Source of the DNA: a phage
Sequence record: PZ445530.1
Strand: one strand, 5' to 3'
Length of the DNA: 64,000 bases
Under the pieces are notes generated by a model, which saw only the letters and a list, made by a program, of their open reading frames with translations, searched no databases and was not told where the DNA came from. Both the position numbers and the translations under genes were made by a program. Below, in pieces: positions 14,990 to 45,739 of the stretch. The first letter of the stretch is position 1. The number at the start of each line of letters is the position of its first letter.

Positions 14990-15460
14990 TTACTCCGGTT
15001 CAGGATCTGGGTAATCTTCAATAATAAAGGGCCATCCGTTCCGCTTAGCCTCAGACTTATACTCAATCTCCTTCATTGCAAACTCTAACTGATTCTTAGC
15101 CGGAATACATGCCGGAGAATCATCAATCCAGATATCTGGGTAGATATCAAACTGCGCCAGATAGGCTGCCTTCTGAACACCACCAGTATAAAACACACCA
15201 ACATCAAGCTCCTTGCGCCAATACTCAATGTCTACATTGTCTTGAGTAATGAATCGGAAAGTCACAAGGTAGACTGTCCACCCCTCCTTCTTCAGATCCC
15301 TGATCAGGCGGGAGAAGATGAAAGGGCTCGCATTAAACGTTCCATCAAAGTCAATGGCAATGATGTGCGTGCCGTGGCGAGTCTCATATGGATTGCTCGT
15401 GGTAAGATTGCTGTAATTAAAAGGGACTTCTTCCCCGCAGTAGCTGTAGTCCATATTCAC
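14990..15460 (-). CDS. HAD-superfamily hydrolase-like protein (possible nucleotidase/phosphatase)
   Basis: Motif I IAIDFDGT near N-terminus and downstream IWIDD acidic motif. Confidence 0.5.
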   Translation of the reverse strand: MNMDYSYCGEEVPFNYSNLTTSNPYETRHGTHIIAIDFDGTFNASPFIFSRLIRDLKKEGWTVYLVTFRFITQDNVDIEYWRKELDVGVFYTGGVQKAAYLAQFDIYPDIWIDDSPACIPAKNQLEFAMKEIEYKSEAKRNGWPFIIEDYPDPEPE

Positions 15461-17837: not shown

Positions 17838-19319
17838 TTACTTAGCGTACTCGATTAATTCCACAGTTTTACCAAAGCTAGGGATATAATTTTTATTATA
17901 CCCTTCGGTTAGAACCCATAAAGTATCGTACTTTTTCCACTTGTTGTCAACAGCCTTTTGTTCAAAGTTATGCTCAAAGTATAGGTCGGTCAGGACGATG
18001 ACATCTTTTGCATTTGGTATGTTGGCATCCAGATACTCGAACACGCAAGCAGCTGTTGTTCCCCATGTTGAGTGGACCTCATAGTTGATCATTTCGTCTA
18101 TGTTGCCGCGAGTGTATACTTTAACCTCTCCAACCTCAGTTGACCAACAGAACATTGTAACCTTAAACTCTTTATACAGATTGCACAATCCGGTGATTTC
18201 ATTGAACATTTTCTTTAAAGTTCTTTGAGAGATCGAGCCAGAAACGTCTAAAGCCACCACAATATCTATAGTGTTTTCCGGATTACGACCAGGAACAATA
18301 ACGTGCTGGTTCTTGTTTATAGCCCCAACTTTTCGCATTGTGCTGGTCAAAGACCCAGATCGGCGACCAGGTTTTCTGTAGGTCAGTTCGGCCTTTCTTT
18401 TAGACAACATACGTTGCTTAATGATGTCTATATAGTTGATTACAGGCTTACCTCTGTTCTTGACAAACTCACGCACCGCCTCAGGGCAACGGCCTCCGGA
18501 CGCTTGCATTGCTGCCTCCAGCATATCACCAGAGTCCTGCATGGCCTGATCTTTATCAGATTGGCTGATTACAGGTTGTGGCTGATCATACCCCATAGCC
18601 TTTCCAAGATTATCACTGGTGCCACCGTTCCCACTCATGTGATCATCGGTTTGTCGCTTATCACTTTGAGAGTTCTCACCTTTACCGTTCTTACTTTTAC
18701 CGTTATTCTGATCTCTTTGCTTATCAAGAACTGCATAAACGTTCTCAGCAATCCATCCATGAAACTTCATGTCGCAGTAGCAGCTGGCTAAGAAGCCAAA
18801 AGGCTTACCTTTCATGAACGTAGTGCTTTTCCCCTTCGGGAAGAAAACACAAGGAGGTTTGCTAAAGTCAACCACAAGGCCTGTGTTGATAACGTGATCA
18901 CAAGCAATATTGAACAGTTCCGGCTCAAAGCTTTTACCACGGACTAGGTGATCACAGATAATATGCCCCACCTCATGTGACAGAAGGAAGGCCACCTCTT
19001 TCACAGATTTTGGGGAATAGAAAACTTCAGCCATCTCAAACTGCTCGTCAGTTAGAGAAGCCTTAAGAATAGCCTTGCGTTCATCAGCCAATCCCATAAT
19101 GAACTCAGGACTGTAATAGATGCGTTTATGGTCGGTTGCCATGGTGGAGCACCATGTGTGGTTTTCTACGAACTGCAACCCTGACAGTAGTGTGCCATAA
19201 AACGGCAGCTTTTCAAGGAGATACATACGTGCAGCCTGCAACATTCTCAGGGCATCATCTTTCTGCGAGGCAATGATTTCTGAACTTCTGCTATCCATTA
19301 AAACTCCAGAAGGGGCCAT
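17838..19319 (-). CDS. VWA-domain protein with N-terminal HExxH metallopeptidase-like motif
   Basis: HEVGHIICDH zinc-binding signature; C-terminal MIDAS-like IVVALDVSGSIS. Confidence 0.7.
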   Translation of the reverse strand: MAPSGVLMDSRSSEIIASQKDDALRMLQAARMYLLEKLPFYGTLLSGLQFVENHTWCSTMATDHKRIYYSPEFIMGLADERKAILKASLTDEQFEMAEVFYSPKSVKEVAFLLSHEVGHIICDHLVRGKSFEPELFNIACDHVINTGLVVDFSKPPCVFFPKGKSTTFMKGKPFGFLASCYCDMKFHGWIAENVYAVLDKQRDQNNGKSKNGKGENSQSDKRQTDDHMSGNGGTSDNLGKAMGYDQPQPVISQSDKDQAMQDSGDMLEAAMQASGGRCPEAVREFVKNRGKPVINYIDIIKQRMLSKRKAELTYRKPGRRSGSLTSTMRKVGAINKNQHVIVPGRNPENTIDIVVALDVSGSISQRTLKKMFNEITGLCNLYKEFKVTMFCWSTEVGEVKVYTRGNIDEMINYEVHSTWGTTAACVFEYLDANIPNAKDVIVLTDLYFEHNFEQKAVDNKWKKYDTLWVLTEGYNKNYIPSFGKTVELIEYAK

Positions 19320-22679: not shown

Positions 22680-22949
22680 ATGTTATACCAGCAATATGAA
22701 CTTCGTGCAGAAAAAGAGTTAAATTTTGACAAAGATATTCACAGATATTATTATGGGAAAGTTAGAGGGCAAGCAAGAAAGTGTACTCCAACACTCTTTT
22801 ATGCCAGCAGACGACTAGCGCCAGAAGAGGCAACAGCAGAAAGGGTTGCGTACAACTGGAGAGTCACGTATGATATTGACAGATTCGATATGATATCTGT
22901 TTTGGAAAACTTTGAAAACACTTACACACAAGTAGAGGACTTTTACTAA
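22680..22949 (+). CDS. hypothetical protein (about 89 aa)
   Basis: ATG after aaggagtgg within track ORF 22671-22949. Confidence 0.45.
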   Translation: MLYQQYELRAEKELNFDKDIHRYYYGKVRGQARKCTPTLFYASRRLAPEEATAERVAYNWRVTYDIDRFDMISVLENFENTYTQVEDFY

Positions 22950-24133
22950 TGTCAAGAAACGTATTCGAAAGTGGTCAAATCACTGTCCGTGAGTTGCCAG
23001 CTATTATTCAGTTTGCCCAACGTCATAGCCGATCTGTCCTAATTTTGGGACCAATGGGTGTGGGTAAAAGCCAGGTGATGAAGCAGATCGCTGATAATAT
23101 GTTCGGTGAGCGAGATGACAACCTTGTTGACGTGCGACTGTCAGATAAAGATCCTGCCGACTTATCTGGGCTACCTATCCCTGTAGAAGCGGATGGAACT
23201 ACACGTACAGTGTTTGCAATTCCAGAATTTTGGCCTGCGGATCCTGACTGGAGCGGAATTATCTTTCTGGATGAGCTCACTCATGCAGATAACTACCTGC
23301 AAAAGGTTGCAATGCAAATTATGCTTGACCACAAGTGCGGCACCTATGCATTCCCTAAGGGTTCTGTTTTTGTGGCTGCGGGTAACCGTTCTACAGATGG
23401 TGCGGTTCTTTCGGCGCTCGAAGCCCCTCTGGCTAACCGTTTTATCATTGTAGAGGTTACAAGCAATGCAGAGGTGTTTATTGAGGACTACGCATTCCTC
23501 AACGGGGTTCACTCCTCTGTAATTGGGTATCTGAAAAGAGTTCCATCAGCTATTGATAATTATGAGGCTATGGCTGAGATTAATTGTCCATCTTTTGCCA
23601 CACCACGATCTTGGGTTGCTGCATCTGACATCTTGCACGATTTTGACAGCGGTATTATTTCTGACGCTATGGCCCGTGTTCTTCTACAAGGTGCTATTGG
23701 TCACACTGCAGCGGTAGAGATCTGGACTTACCACACCAAGAAACGTAATTTACCGGAAATCGGTCGGATTATGGCAGGTGGCTGCAAAGAATACGTAGGT
23801 CCTAAGCAGCCAGACATTTTGTGGATTCTTGGATCTGAAGGTTGTATCGCTATTCGCAATATGATGGAAAATGCAAGTATCTCCGACGAAGATCTTGTTA
23901 GCTGTGTGGCAAACTTCCTCGATTTCCTTTGGGAAAATTTCAAGGACGAGAACCGAGATTTTGTATTCTCAGTCTTTATGGCGATGATGAAACCTAACGC
24001 CTTAGGAAATGCCTTGCTTATCGGTAAAGGGCGTGACAAGATTGTTGCTCAGTTGATCAAAGCATATCCAAACCTGATGAAGATTGTAAAAGAGTTTGGT
24101 GAAGAGTTTAGCGCCATTTTGGCTAAAGCTTAA
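22949..24133 (+). CDS. AAA+ ATPase (MoxR/CbbQ-like)
   Basis: Walker A GPMGVGKS, Walker B IIFLDELTHA, sensor-1 AAGN, Arg finger LANRF. Confidence 0.7.
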   Translation: MSRNVFESGQITVRELPAIIQFAQRHSRSVLILGPMGVGKSQVMKQIADNMFGERDDNLVDVRLSDKDPADLSGLPIPVEADGTTRTVFAIPEFWPADPDWSGIIFLDELTHADNYLQKVAMQIMLDHKCGTYAFPKGSVFVAAGNRSTDGAVLSALEAPLANRFIIVEVTSNAEVFIEDYAFLNGVHSSVIGYLKRVPSAIDNYEAMAEINCPSFATPRSWVAASDILHDFDSGIISDAMARVLLQGAIGHTAAVEIWTYHTKKRNLPEIGRIMAGGCKEYVGPKQPDILWILGSEGCIAIRNMMENASISDEDLVSCVANFLDFLWENFKDENRDFVFSVFMAMMKPNALGNALLIGKGRDKIVAQLIKAYPNLMKIVKEFGEEFSAILAKA

Positions 24134-35513: not shown

Positions 35514-38500
35514 ATGAGCATGTGGTCGTTCGATTTTGAGTCATCCGGTTTGCTGGAAGACCCAGATCTTTATTATCACTGCGGCCTGTTTAAAGAGCTG
35601 AATAAGAACCGTTTTATGCTGTTCCTTCCTCTGAATGACCGCACACACTACTCCGAGGAGGATATAGAGAAGGCCAAGAACTTTATTCTGGCAAAGAAAA
35701 CTCTTTATAAGGATTTTGAAGTTCGCATAGCAGATTTTTCGGAGTTGGAAGGTTGGCTTACAGGAAATTCCGACTGGTCACCAACAGCTTTGAACTGCCA
35801 TAACTGCTACAGTTATGACTTTATGCTGATGGAGAGATTATCCGGTATTCATTTTGATATGTTCCGTGATCCTAAATGTATGGGGACTATCAACGACCAC
35901 CAGGTTAACCTGTTTGATACGTTGGCGATGAGCCGAATCTTGTGGCCTGATCGCCCTTTACCAAAAGGTTGTCCGGACTCCGTATTCAACCCGGTTACTA
36001 AGAAAATGCAGCCTGTTGGTCCTCACGGCCTTATGGCATGGGGCTACGCCCTTGGTAACCAGAAAGTTCAAATTGATGATTGGCGCGATCTTCCGTTGTG
36101 GAAGTATGTGGATCGTGTATTCGAGGACGTTATCATCCAGGAGCTACTCTGGAAAGAGCTGGTAGCGGAATCAAAAGGTGTATTCTACGGCAAATCTGAC
36201 ATGCAGAACTTTATGTACGATCCTGCCAAAGAGAAGCCGAAAGGGTTCAAGAAGATCACCTGGAAGAACGCATTGCGCCGGGGTATGCTGCAACACTTCC
36301 TGATGGAGCTGCAGGCCCGTCAGGGTGTGTATTTTGACATAGATGGAGCTATTGCTTTACGTGACCGTTGCGATGCGTGGATGAAAGAAATCGCTGATCG
36401 TGTTGAACCACAACTGCCTTTAAAAGAGCTGTCAATGTCTCAGCGGCCCAAGTTCCCTGAAAAGCCGTTTAACCAAGATGGGACAATCTCTAATAATGGT
36501 TGGAAATGGTTAAAAGATAAGCTTGGCTATCCTGTGGACATGAGTGCTTTAGAGTTCAAAGCCCCACCTAAGCGAGCATTTACCTCTACAGGAGATGTCA
36601 GTAAGATGGGGATAAAATGGTGTGAAGAGATGGGCTGCAAAGACCACGATAAGATGGCTGATTTCTTGAGAGGCTATATTAAGGGCACCTCCACACCACA
36701 ACCTTTACCTAAAGAGCTGATGGATCAGGCAATAAGCGATCTGCAGCAGAAGCGAATGCCTGACTGCAAGATACCTATGAAAATCAGCAATCAGGACGAT
36801 ATTAAGCGATACCTGATCAGTGCTGGTTGGCTTCCGACAATGTGGAGAACTAAGGATGTAACTAAAGACAGCAAGAAGAAAGCTTTACCTGATGCAGATG
36901 TTGATGCACGAGTATATGCATATATGGACGAGCTTTTGGAGTCAGAGTATTGTGACCTAATTATCAACTTCTGGAACAAAACTGATGCTAAGTTCCAGAC
37001 AACCGTGCACAAGTTCCGAAGCTTTCCTAACTCCGAAAGGATTAAAAAGGAAGTATTCGGGAAAATACGTAGAAAAGCTAGGGCACTTATTACTTCTCCG
37101 CAACTGAAAGATACGTTTGGACACCTGTGTCCGAATCTTGAAAAATTGAACGGAGAGATGGCTAAAGATATCGTCTTATGGTTATCATTGCGAAACCGCA
37201 GATCGGTACTTGATCCAATCAAGGAGGATAAGGTTGACACTGGTCTTCTTAATCACCCACGTTTGAAGATTGACCATAAGCTTCCTGCTAAAAGCTCTGG
37301 ATTAACAAACACTTCCAGACAGAAACACAGTATTTGTGCAAACATGCCTAAACCCTCTCCTAAAGTGGTTATGGGTAAAGAGATGCGTAGCTTGTGGGGT
37401 GTTCCTCCAGGATACTTTGAGATCGGTATCGACGGGTCCAACTTAGAGCAGCTTATCGGGGCTTGGGGTGCCTTTGAGTTCGACAACGGCCTGTATTACG
37501 ATGTTGTAAGTAACGGAGACGCACACCAAAACAATGCTGAGGCATATACAAAAGTAGCAGGCAGAGAGGTGTCCCGTAACGACGGTAAACCTATCACGTA
37601 TGGGGTTATGTACGGGGCACAAAAAGATAAAGTTGCAGATATGCTGGACATCTCTCCAGAGTTGGGACAAAGGGTAATCGATGCGCTTTGGGATGCCAAC
37701 CCTGGTCTTAAGGGCCGTAAAGAGGATCTGGAGAAATTCTGGGAAGCAACGGGTAAGAAGTTTATCTACTCTTTTGATGGTCATGCCATCTGGACCCGAT
37801 CTAAACACTCTTTACTTAATGCATACCAACAGAATGGTGGTGCATCGCTGTGTGACTTGGTTGGGATACTTATGCACCACCAAATGGTGAAGCGTGGGTG
37901 GTACGATGAAGGTGTTCGTCGTATTATCTATTACCATAAATAACATTGTGGCTTCGTGCAGTGATGCACGTCGAAAACCTCTTTAATTGACGGGAAGGCT
38001 AAGTTGACTTTTACACCTAAACATGGTAAAAGCTCAATATGCTAATCCGCAGCGAAGACTAAAGGGGTGTAGTTAAAATGGCTAGATCAGTTGAGTATCA
38101 CGGATATACCGTGTTTGATGATGGAACAATACCTTTATCGAAACGTGATCATACAACAATGTTTTGTTTTGATAATGGTCGAGGTTACCTTTGCGTAACC
38201 ATGTTCATCGAGGGGAAGCAGTGCACAAAAGGTGTCCACCACTTGGTTGCTGAATGCTTTGTATCAAACCCTGATCCTGAAAGGCTCACATGGGTGAACC
38301 ATAAGGACGGAAACAAATACAACAATGCATACTGGAACCTTGAATGGACCACCCCTGGTGGAAATATCAAACACGCTTATGATAATGACCTCAGAGTAAG
38401 GCCAGTCGGTGAGTATAATGCCAACGCTGTACTGACCGAGGATGAGGTAACGGAGATTTGCGAACTGTTACAAAGTGGTTTACGACAATGCGAGATTAGG

Positions 38501-43564: not shown

Positions 43565-43592
43565 AGCCCTGCCCGAAAGGGTGGGGCATTTT
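43565..43592 (+). terminator. intrinsic terminator (copy 2 of repeated terminator)
   Basis: Same GCCCTGCCC-GAAA-GGGTGGGGC hairpin as 32578, followed by ATTTTT. Confidence 0.6.
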
Positions 43593-43612: not shown

Positions 43613-44029
43613 ATGACATTAGAAGATATCATTGTTAAACCTGAGAACTATGACCAATACAACCTGTCAACTCAATCTGTAGACCTTGGATGCGCCACAG
43701 TTAGTGCGTGGCTGGTTAACGGAAAAGAGCTGGACAAGTGCTTAGAAGCTCACATGTCTGTTAACAAGTTTCTGGATGAAAATACTCACTGGCTGGAAGG
43801 TGCAGGCGTATATGCTTCATGGTTGGAGAGCATGGGCTTTGACTATCAATCTGATGAAGGGTGGTGGAGCTATCTAGCTATCTGTCCAGAAACACGGCAA
43901 TGCTTCATGAAATACTCTGAAGATCTTGAGTACCGAGCGGTGGTTGATAGTGCTATTGCCCGTTATAGCCGTAAACCTTTTTCCCACGACATTAAAACTG
44001 TGGAAGAATTTGTTGAAGTTTTCTGTTGA
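43613..44029 (+). CDS. hypothetical protein (138 aa)
   Basis: RBS taaggagat. Confidence 0.5.
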   Translation: MTLEDIIVKPENYDQYNLSTQSVDLGCATVSAWLVNGKELDKCLEAHMSVNKFLDENTHWLEGAGVYASWLESMGFDYQSDEGWWSYLAICPETRQCFMKYSEDLEYRAVVDSAIARYSRKPFSHDIKTVEEFVEVFC

Positions 44030-44125
44030 CACAGGTTGAAAGGTGTGCAATTATAACTTCATATAACGGGAGGACGCGATGAACGAAGAAAACTGGGATG
44101 TATAACTAACAGGAGGCCACTGCCC

Positions 44126-44323
44126 ATGATTTATCGAATCCGTGTAAGAGAAGATGCACCAGGCTGTTACTTTGACTGGCGTGGGTGGTGGTTTCTCCAC
44201 CCAATGGATGGACTCACAGATAGAATGCTGGATGCTGCCCTTTATACAGATACCGACATAGAATATAATCTCTATCTGAAGGACGGTATAGATAACGGTC
44301 TATTTGAAGCAATTCCTGTGTAA
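44126..44323 (+). CDS. hypothetical protein (65 aa)
   Basis: RBS caggagg. Confidence 0.4.
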   Translation: MIYRIRVREDAPGCYFDWRGWWFLHPMDGLTDRMLDAALYTDTDIEYNLYLKDGIDNGLFEAIPV

Positions 44324-44388: not shown

Positions 44389-44814
44389 ATGATCTATGAA
44401 ATGCCAAAACTGATTCGTGACGATGCCCAAAACGCTAACACCATTATTATGGGCAAACGCATGGATATTATTTGTCATAAAGATTTCTGGGAAGGGAGTT
44501 ACTTCACAGAGTATTTTGGTAAACTGGACAATGGTCTGCTGATCCAGTTCTACACCGATGCGGAAAACAATATCTGCTGGGAGTTCGAAACTGAAGATAT
44601 CCATAAACTTTTCACCTTCCTAGGTATTAAGGTTGAGGCCAAGTTCGAAGAAGGTGAGTGCGACGATTGTGGATTCTACGAGGTAACAGATTTCTATCTC
44701 CCAAGTGGTGAGAACCTTTACTATGAAAGCCACTTCGGTAACTCCAATATGCCACAGTGCTGGACTGAGTTTTTTGAAATTGCGGAAGAGGAGCTGGCAT
44801 ACCGTGATTATTGA
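44389..44814 (+). CDS. hypothetical protein (141 aa)
   Basis: ORF in track. Confidence 0.45.
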   Translation: MIYEMPKLIRDDAQNANTIIMGKRMDIICHKDFWEGSYFTEYFGKLDNGLLIQFYTDAENNICWEFETEDIHKLFTFLGIKVEAKFEEGECDDCGFYEVTDFYLPSGENLYYESHFGNSNMPQCWTEFFEIAEEELAYRDY

Positions 44815-45262
44815 TACTGTAGAGGGAGATTTAATCTCCCTTTTTAAGAGCGGTGCTGGTCACCTGATCCACGGTTGTAACTGCTTCCACACAATGGGCA
44901 AGGGGATAGCAAAACAGATTTCCCGTGAGTTCCCTCAAGCATTGGCAGCTGACAAAGAGACTAGATATGGTTGCCTAAGTAAACTGGGTGCGTTCTCCCG
45001 ATGGGAGCACTTATCTCCGAGAGGTATTGTCTACGGAATCAATCTGTATACTCAGTTCTACCCAGGACCTAATGCTGAATATTTCTCAATTCTGAAAGGC
45101 TTTGAGCTAGTCAATGAGGTATTCAGTAGATCGACTTTACCATTCTACATCCCTAAGATCGGGTGCGGCATAGGCGGTTTGAAGTGGGAGCACGTAGAGG
45201 ACGTTATTAACCTTGCCACTTTTGATATGGATATTATCGTGGTAGACTACAAAAAGTGTTGA
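44804..45262 (+). CDS. macrodomain protein (TARG1/OARD1/DarG-like ADP-ribosyl hydrolase)
   Basis: GTG start after GAGGAG overlapping upstream stop; GDLISLF, HGCNCFHTMGKGIA and PKIGCGIGGLKWEHV parallel TARG1 blocks GDLF, HCISEDCRMGAGIA, PRIGCGLDRLQWENV (recalled from memory). Confidence 0.7.
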   Translation: MIIDTVEGDLISLFKSGAGHLIHGCNCFHTMGKGIAKQISREFPQALAADKETRYGCLSKLGAFSRWEHLSPRGIVYGINLYTQFYPGPNAEYFSILKGFELVNEVFSRSTLPFYIPKIGCGIGGLKWEHVEDVINLATFDMDIIVVDYKKC

Positions 45263-45711: not shown

Positions 45712-45739
45712 TTGACATCTGAAAACTACAGTGTATAAT
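45712..45739 (+). promoter_or_regulatory. sigma70-like promoter
   Basis: TTGACA - 16 bp - TATAAT upstream of gene 45771. Confidence 0.5.

Follow-up and report, generated by a model that had tools for sequence, protein, structure and literature searches.

A Tk.4/AdfM-family macrodomain protein with an asparagine/glutamine site in an rV5-like phage and its probable role against DarTG2

Introduction

The 64,000-nt stretch of phage DNA analyzed here (record PZ445530.1; referred to as the window) carries a 459-nt gene which an earlier note, written from the sequence alone, had read as a macrodomain of the TARG1/DarG class and as a plausible counter-measure to ADP-ribosylating toxins of the host. 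The locus raises the question of which kind of macrodomain this is, what ADP-ribose linkage it would act upon, and whether it could serve the phage against a defence system such as DarTG2.

The gene, its start codon and its lineage

A single coding sequence fills positions 44804..45262 of the forward strand exactly; it opens with GTG, comprises 152 codons and closes with TGA, whereas the mechanical open reading frame is longer at the 5' end and begins at a GTG at 44705. The start at 44804 was retained because the N-terminus that it yields (MIIDTVEGD) aligns from residue 1 with those of T4 Tk.4 (MIVKYIKGD) and of the Krischvirus GEC-3S protein (MIIDTVKGD). It is also favoured because it is preceded by a Shine-Dalgarno-like sequence, because the same GTG is present in all Vequintavirus orthologues examined and because the identical 459-nt CDS is annotated in relatives. 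The start region overlaps the end of an upstream ORF, an arrangement that suggests translational coupling to the macrodomain gene; an overlapping pair of 426 and 459 nt is also found in phage Bas54 (bas54_0091/0092). The features of the gene and its start are as follows.

44804..45262, forward strand: macrodomain CDS, 152 aa, stand-alone, assigned to the Tk.4/AdfM family (PHROG 335) by homology and by annotation in relatives.
44788..44793, forward strand: Shine-Dalgarno-like GAGGAG, 10 nt upstream of the GTG start; read from the sequence, with a putative function.
44804..44814, forward strand: 11-nt overlap with the end of the upstream ORF (44389..44814, stop codon included), read from the sequence.

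Phages of the rV5-like group (genus Vequintavirus), among them E. coli O157 typing phage 4, JES2013 and BP9, share 95-98% identity with the region, and the same CDS occurs in Vequintavirus genomes at ~97% identity to the window; the host of the gene is a virulent myovirus. In the relatives, the product is labelled "macro domain protein", "O-acetyl-ADP-ribose deacetylase", "phosphatase" or "Poa1p-like family", and the basic macrodomain annotation of the gene is already public. The "phosphatase" label was not taken at face value, since it derives from a note of an A1pp motif on T4 Tk.4 and not from an assay.

Fold and family of the protein

The window protein is matched by the Pfam Macro model (PF01661) at 27.5 bits, above the gathering cut-off of 22, and T4 Tk.4 is matched by the same model at 27.7 bits. 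Both proteins share three PHROG matches in identical order, the best being PHROG 335 (2.7e-59 for the window protein and 1.3e-65 for Tk.4). When a family profile built from 75 homologues was run against the PDB sequences, the best matches were SCO6735 of Streptomyces coelicolor (PDB 5E3B, 3.5e-17) and BT1257 of Bacteroides (2FG1/2AFC, ~1e-16), followed by DarG of M. tuberculosis (4.4e-16) and T. aquaticus (3e-14), human TARG1 (4e-14) and yeast Poa1p (3.4e-13). In a search with the single sequence, a DarG macrodomain came on top (2.2e-7), and the PADLOC DarG model matched at 5e-14, over its macro part only.

The earlier note had named structure prediction as a check on the macro fold. An AlphaFold2 model, for which the alignment of the 75 homologues was the input, reached a pLDDT of 96.3 and a pTM of 0.91, and its first Foldseek match in the PDB was TARG1 (E 7.9e-11, TM 0.78/0.85, probability 1.00), with Poa1p (3.8e-10), DarG, BT1257 and SCO6735 behind it at a probability of 1.00 each. 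Macrodomains make up the top 20 matches and most of the 50 listed, likewise at 1.00. Pfam, profile search, model and Foldseek agree, and the match to macrodomains is far beyond chance. The modelled structure confirms a macrodomain with the three-layer alpha/beta/alpha fold, and the class to which the note had referred it is upheld as well: on sequence and model, it is a stand-alone member of the ALC1-like/TARG1-like group that includes TARG1, DarG, Poa1p and SCO6735. The glycine-rich loops MGKGIA and IGCGIGG are conserved, and ADP-ribose binding and hydrolysis are predicted.

The structurally closest protein, TARG1/OARD1 (PDB 4J5R/4J5S), has the same size and architecture. Poa1p, a yeast ADP-ribose-1''-phosphate phosphatase (PDB 6LFQ-6LFU), is close in fold and sequence and ~25 residues longer, and it is the origin of the "phosphatase" and "Poa1p-like" labels of the family. 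Among the genes annotated in the related genome, there is no Tpt1/KptA. The residues H23 and S30 of Poa1p, for which H23A and S30A mutants have been deposited, align with H23 and T30 of the window protein.

Active-site residues

Three motif blocks of the TARG1 family had been pointed out in the earlier note, and all three are found in the given order, at G8-D9-L10, H23 to A36 and P117 to E129. The histidine-cysteine adjacency described for the second of them holds only approximately, as the window protein reads H-G-C. The alignment with the comparators places the residues of interest as follows.

44870..44911, forward strand: Block 1, H23-G-C-N26-C-F-H-T-M-G-K-G-I-A36, ADP-ribose-binding loop 1, from the alignment.
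44879-44881, forward strand: codon of the invariant N26 in Block 1, equivalent to SCO6735 N27, DarG N22 and PhiKZ AdfM N23.
45041..45073, forward strand: Block 2, N80-L-Y-T-Q84-F-Y-P-G-P-N90, from the alignment.
45053-45055, forward strand: codon of the invariant Q84 in Block 2, in the column of TARG1 K84, DarG K80, PhiKZ AdfM K78 and the essential Gln85 of SCO6735.
45152..45190, forward strand: Block 3, P117-K-I-G-C-G-I-G-G-L-K-W-E129, glycine-rich diphosphate-binding loop 2, with G124 at the column of TARG1 Asp125.

Across the alignment of 75 family sequences, G24, N26, G34, A36, N80, Q84, P117 and G120 are invariant. The catalytic dyad Lys84/Asp125 of TARG1 is absent from the alignment columns concerned, which hold Q84 and G124, and Ser26 of TARG1 is likewise replaced by N26. 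The numbering of the TARG1 sequence used in this alignment reproduces the published K84 and D125. Glutamine at the catalytic-lysine column is also found in T4 Tk.4, GEC-3S, SCO6735 and BT1257, and the HMMER alignments agree. Thus, the conserved Lys/Asp which the earlier note had proposed to mutate are not there: an invariant glutamine stands for the lysine and a glycine for TARG1 D125. The site of the Tk.4 family is of the SCO6735 type and not of the DarG/TARG1 type, and such a mutation does not apply.

SCO6735 is the comparator for which this site has been studied. Its N27/Q85 pair matches N26/Q84 of the window protein, replacing the lysine of TARG1 and DarG. It hydrolyses thymidine-ADP-ribose in DNA and rescues cells from DarT; the hydrolysis is abolished by Q85A and almost completely abolished by N27S, and a lysine-independent mechanism with a backbone-positioned water has been proposed (PMC9411070). 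By analogy with these mutants and with N23A of PhiKZ AdfM, Q84 and N26 would be the informative residues. The likeness has limits, since the DNA activity of SCO6735 has been tied to Val/Ile25, to an extended lysine-rich mobile loop and to an electropositive DNA groove (PMC9411070). The window protein has G24 in place of Val25, the counterpart of the mobile loop, which follows Q84, lacks 6-7 residues and contains no lysine, and its pI is near neutral (6.5) versus 9.7 for SCO6735 with its basic surface. Moreover, SCO6735 is a cellular, DNA-damage-inducible protein, whereas the window protein is encoded by a phage.

Membership in the phage Tk.4/AdfM family

By BLASTP, the window protein is 40% identical to T4 Tk.4 over 154 aligned columns, that is, over the full length (E 3e-42); the match is tk.4 of NC_000866 (60922..61389), annotated as "phosphatase; contains A1pp motif". 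The two are alike in being stand-alone proteins of ~150 aa with PHROG 335 as their best match, and they share the blocks HGCNCFHTMG-G, NLYTQF-PGPN and IP+IG-GIG, including N26 and Q84. In Krischvirus GEC-3S, the position of tk.4, between vs and tk, is occupied by a gene whose product shares 66% identity with the window protein and bridges the T4-like and Vequintavirus lineages. Homologues were detected by tblastn in 2,822 of 50,697 phage records, and their holders include T4-like phages, Vequintavirus, Felixounavirus, Pseudomonas phages of the Pakpunavirus type and Salmonella phages of the Ackermannviridae type. From these sequence comparisons, we assign the window protein to the Tk.4/AdfM family, a widespread and already annotated family of phage proteins. 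The genomic context differs: in T4 the order is vs-tk.4-tk.3, whereas the window gene is surrounded by small lineage-specific ORFs in the stretch that follows the DNA polymerase region.

The T4 member has been linked to defence in a preprint by Humolli et al. from the Harms and Veening groups, where tk.4 was named adfM, for anti-DarT factor, macrodomain (bioRxiv 10.1101/2025.11.20.689424). After passage of a T4 transposon library on bacteria with DarTG2, tk.4 was the only significant hit, its insertions being depleted, and a clean tk.4 knockout rendered T4 sensitive to DarTG2; this evidence is genetic (10.1101/2025.11.20.689424). The DarTG2 phenotype is that of the T4 member, and for the Vequintavirus gene it is predicted by homology.

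Distinction from DarG antitoxins

The likeness to DarG noted earlier stands as far as the macrodomain class is concerned, and it ends there. The NCBIfam DarG equivalog model (NF048014) matched at 47.8 bits against a cut-off of 250, and only over profile positions 3-138 of 338. At 152 aa, the protein consists of the macrodomain alone, and the C-terminal DarT-binding domain of DarG is absent. No darT neighbour was found, nine neighbouring ORFs being without a Pfam match and seven without a PADLOC match. The window protein is not a DarG antitoxin. Set beside the DarG2 macrodomains (T. aquaticus 5M31/5M3E and M. tuberculosis 5M3I), it has the fold and class in common and keeps the asparagine of loop 1, and the target chemistry of DarG2, thymidine-ADP-ribose (T-ADPr) on single-stranded DNA, is the one proposed for it. 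It differs in having glutamine for the catalytic Lys80, besides the missing domain and the missing adjacent darT.

A split DarG or a hidden toxin-antitoxin pair formed with ORF 44389..44814 or other neighbours was also considered and rejected, as no Pfam, PADLOC or PDB matches were obtained. The Krischvirus homologues of this ORF adjoin dam and endonuclease VII, away from the macrodomain gene; being at an unrelated locus, they show that the ORF is not a conserved partner. An ADP-ribosyltransferase or NADAR partner of the phage itself was set aside too: none is annotated in the related complete genome PQ014731, an absence by annotation that speaks only weakly, and a scan of ten mid-size ORFs of the window yielded none. 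A split DNA polymerase in the window was likewise dismissed, since the polymerase is intact and it is that of a relative which carries a 324-aa insertion.

A second phage system was compared as well. The AdfM of chimalliviruses (PhiKZ gp104), a DarG-like macrodomain, removes the T-ADPr made by DarT2 in vitro, and it confers protection from DarTG2 (PMC13309987). Like it, the window protein is a phage-encoded, stand-alone macrodomain for which an anti-DarTG2 role is proposed; PhiKZ AdfM, however, is of the DarG type, with an FPTK motif, K78 and N23, whereas the window protein is of the glutamine type. PhiKZ AdfM is also imported into the phage nucleus. ICP1 AdfB was not used as a comparator, because it is a 77-aa DarT binder and has no macrodomain.

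Selection, dispensability and transcriptional context

Comparison of the macrodomain gene with that of rV5_ev147 gave a dN/dS of 0.13 at a dS of ~1.0, and other Vequintavirus pairs gave 0.11-0.12; purifying selection thus acts on the gene. Phage Bas54 (Vequintavirinae) has its genes here in the same order and with the same lengths as the window (417/198/426/459/171 nt), and the 11-nt overlap is identical too. In the positional orthologue bas54_0092, of 459 nt, all 31 of the 31 TA sites took transposon insertions, and the gene was classed as non-essential on E. coli K-12; in T4 tk.4, 45 of 46 sites took them (10.1101/2025.11.20.689424). Dispensability on K-12 is hence a further trait shared with T4 tk.4, on the side of the Vequintavirus gene through the Bas54 orthologue. 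The surroundings hold the following signals.

43566-43587: strong terminator, after which the small-gene block begins.
44026-44054: further candidate promoter site, by consensus match.
44241..44269, forward strand: candidate sigma-70-type promoter, TTTATA-17-TATAAT, matching 10 of 12 consensus positions, upstream of the pair formed by ORF 44389..44814 and the macrodomain gene.
45712-45739: sigma-70 consensus promoter, 12 of 12, after the macrodomain gene.

A gene that is conserved yet dispensable, and that lies in a small-gene block with sigma-70 promoters, fits an accessory anti-defence gene with a presumed early expression.

Proposed function and alternatives

On balance, and by analogy with the T4 and SCO6735 proteins, we consider the gene product probably to be an early, dispensable macrodomain hydrolase of the Tk.4/AdfM family and of the glutamine type, which would strip the ADP-ribose attached by DarT2 from thymidines in single-stranded phage DNA. 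The protein would be produced early from the host-type promoter region. In a host with DarTG2, DarT2 would ADP-ribosylate thymidines in the single-stranded phage DNA and so block replication; the cleft of the macrodomain would then take up the ADP-ribose and the N-glycosidic link to thymine would be cut, restoring replicable DNA. The chemistry would probably be lysine-independent and of the SCO6735 type, in which Gln84, held by Asn26, would position the distal ribose and the reaction would be started by a water bound to the backbone, unlike the lysine-dependent chemistry of DarG and TARG1. The anti-defence role suggested earlier thus seems likely, by analogy with the T4 homologue, which is genetically needed against DarTG2 (10.1101/2025.11.20.689424).

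Several points count against this anti-DarT2 role. At 40% identity to T4 Tk.4, the substrate specificity could differ. The lysine which is essential in DarG (K80A is inactive) and kept in the tested PhiKZ AdfM (K78) is missing in the window protein, and so are two of the features associated with DNA activity in SCO6735 (Val25 and the lysine-rich mobile loop); its pI is also lower. In addition, Iyer et al. have argued, on the basis of gene neighbourhoods, that soluble derivatives of ADP-ribose are the substrates of most phage macrodomains (PMC9503650), which counts against a DNA role.

This last view leads to a different substrate, one that we regard as unlikely here: the protein could be a phosphatase of the Poa1p kind that acts on ADP-ribose-1''-phosphate and disposes of by-products from the predicted sirtuin-RNA ligase-PNK module for RNA repair of the phage, or a degrader of toxic metabolites or immune signals derived from ADP-ribose. 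Besides the "phosphatase" and "Poa1p-like" labels on relatives and PHROG 335, the rank of Poa1p among the best matches (3.4e-13 by profile, 3.8e-10 by Foldseek) and the alignment of its mutated H23 and S30 with H23 and T30 are consistent with it. So is the related complete genome, in which a Sir2-like gene adjoins an RNA ligase and a MazG-type pyrophosphohydrolase; the V5 sirtuin is predicted to be KptA-like and to make ADPr>P, and phage macrodomains are held to act mostly on such soluble derivatives (Iyer et al., PMC9503650). Nevertheless, ~50 kb separate the macrodomain gene from the Sir2/RNA-ligase cluster, and the same authors state explicitly that the V5 sirtuin is not coupled to any macrodomain gene (PMC9503650). 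The "phosphatase" label is inherited from the A1pp motif, and in T4-like phages members of the family occupy the tk.4 position, for which sensitivity to DarTG2 is the only phenotype found.

A target on protein or RNA also seems improbable, whether the enzyme would reverse another host defence or toxin (by acting on uracil-linked RNA or on Glu/Asp-linked protein) or would modulate ADP-ribosylation that the phage itself carries out. Macrodomains of the TARG1-like class are promiscuous: ADP-ribose linked to Glu in proteins is also a substrate of SCO6735 and TARG1 (PMC9411070), TARG1, DarG and SCO6735 strip ADP-ribose from uracil in RNA (PMC13036486), and TARG1 is the closest fold. Against this, CmdTAC, an mRNA ADP-ribosyltransferase system, still strongly restricts T4 despite Tk.4, and its adenine modification is described as irreversible (PMC13036486); our literature search found no bacterial defence directed at these phages that works by ADP-ribosylation of RNA at uracil or of protein at Glu. 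As for phage-made ADP-ribosylation, of which the earlier note had alternatively seen a regulator, it finds no support, as no ADP-ribosyltransferase is annotated in the related complete genome or was seen among the window ORFs scanned. A non-catalytic binder of ADP-ribose or a direct inhibitor of DarT, protecting by sequestration or occlusion, is very improbable. The canonical catalytic lysine is indeed missing, and the catalytically inactive Q85A mutant of SCO6735 remains an inhibitor of DarT through interaction, a stronger one than DarG K80A or TARG1 K84A (PMC9411070); other anti-DarT factors, AdfA and AdfB, bind directly. Yet the Q84 and N26 that are invariant across the family are the catalytic needs of SCO6735, which points to a conserved enzymatic function, and a DarT-binding C-terminal domain like that of DarG is lacking.

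The preferred reading, a hydrolase acting on DarT2-modified DNA, might also be widened. The glutamine-type Tk.4 clade could be a mechanistically distinct, lysine-independent hydrolase of base-linked ADP-ribose with a wider remit than the DarG-type AdfM, covering thymine in DNA as well as uracil in RNA or soluble products of the sirtuin RNA-repair module. We hold this extension to be rather doubtful; if it were true, a single small protein made early would deal with several host attacks that rely on ADP-ribose.

Implications

A phage macrodomain as an eraser against DarT2 is by now a known kind of system. What is mildly new, and the sole such point, is that the Tk.4-type family, as judged from the aligned residues, would use an Asn/Gln site of the SCO6735 type instead of the lysine of DarG. 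If the prediction for the window gene holds, rV5-like phages (Vequintavirus) would bring a ready-made counter to DarTG2. Since phages of this genus are used for O157 typing and are considered for therapy, this would bear on the prediction of host range in E. coli carrying DarTG. The asparagine/glutamine site in one family and the lysine site in the other would then mean that phages have recruited two macrodomain chemistries against the same defence.

Possible gene exchange with Krischvirus

The Vequintavirus macrodomain protein (window 44804-45262) shares 66% identity with the protein at the tk.4 position of Krischvirus GEC-3S (3001-3456 of L009, the GEC-3S stretch), versus only 40% with T4 Tk.4 itself, and the 141-aa ORF upstream has 36-37% homologues in Krischvirus, where they lie at a different locus. 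These sequence comparisons suggest that Vequintavirus and Krischvirus, both of them lineages of E. coli phages, have exchanged genes. Within the phage collection, the E. coli Vequintavirus region is ~95-98% identical to 16 unannotated MG0656xx records labelled as Campylobacter jejuni phages (e.g., "Campylobacter phage C7, C9, A112b, A142 ..."), which may reflect a wrong host label or a contaminant assembly.

Transcriptional context of the macrodomain gene

The surroundings of the macrodomain gene look like an early region made up of several short units, predicted to be transcribed by the host RNA polymerase. The following signals were found in the window:

43566-43587, strong terminator (hairpin and T-run) 3' of the 408-aa ORF
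44026-44054 and 44241-44269, further good matches to the sigma-70 promoter consensus near the macrodomain gene
45712-45739 (+), perfect 12/12 match to the sigma-70 consensus promoter (TTGACA-16-TATAAT), shortly 3' of the macrodomain gene

Other genes of the window and its relatives

The DNA polymerase of the window is contiguous (35514-37943, +; 809 aa) and lacks a 324-aa insertion found at residues 672-995 of the polymerase of PQ014731, a related complete genome (827-4225 of L006, its polymerase stretch); the extra segment could be an intein or some other kind of mobile insertion. Two further window genes are

17838-19319 (-), DUF2201 metallopeptidase/VWA protein, in the vicinity of the next ORF
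22949-24133 (+), MoxR-type AAA ATPase ORF, labelled "MoxR ATPase" in PQ014731 and with a weak match to Pfam AAA_14

Overcoming the predicted defence system DS-28 has been reported to require the MoxR ATPase of Bas54 (bas54_0063), of which the window ORF is a candidate orthologue by its MoxR label.

In related genomes, a Sir2-like gene stands beside genes for a MazG-type pyrophosphohydrolase and an RNA ligase (outside the window, at 113338-115372 of PQ014731), and a polynucleotide kinase is annotated as well; the set is predicted to form a sirtuin-based RNA-repair module (Iyer et al., PMC9503650). The polynucleotide kinase seems to map to window 14990-15460 (-), by an approximate coordinate offset only; the ORF at this position had no Pfam match.

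Anti-DarT erasers in Vequintavirinae

Bas60-62, three other Vequintavirinae phages, are described in the literature as carrying a NADAR protein (AdfN-Bas60), which acts against DarTG1. Since no NADAR protein is annotated in PQ014731, the anti-DarT erasers may differ from member to member within the subfamily.
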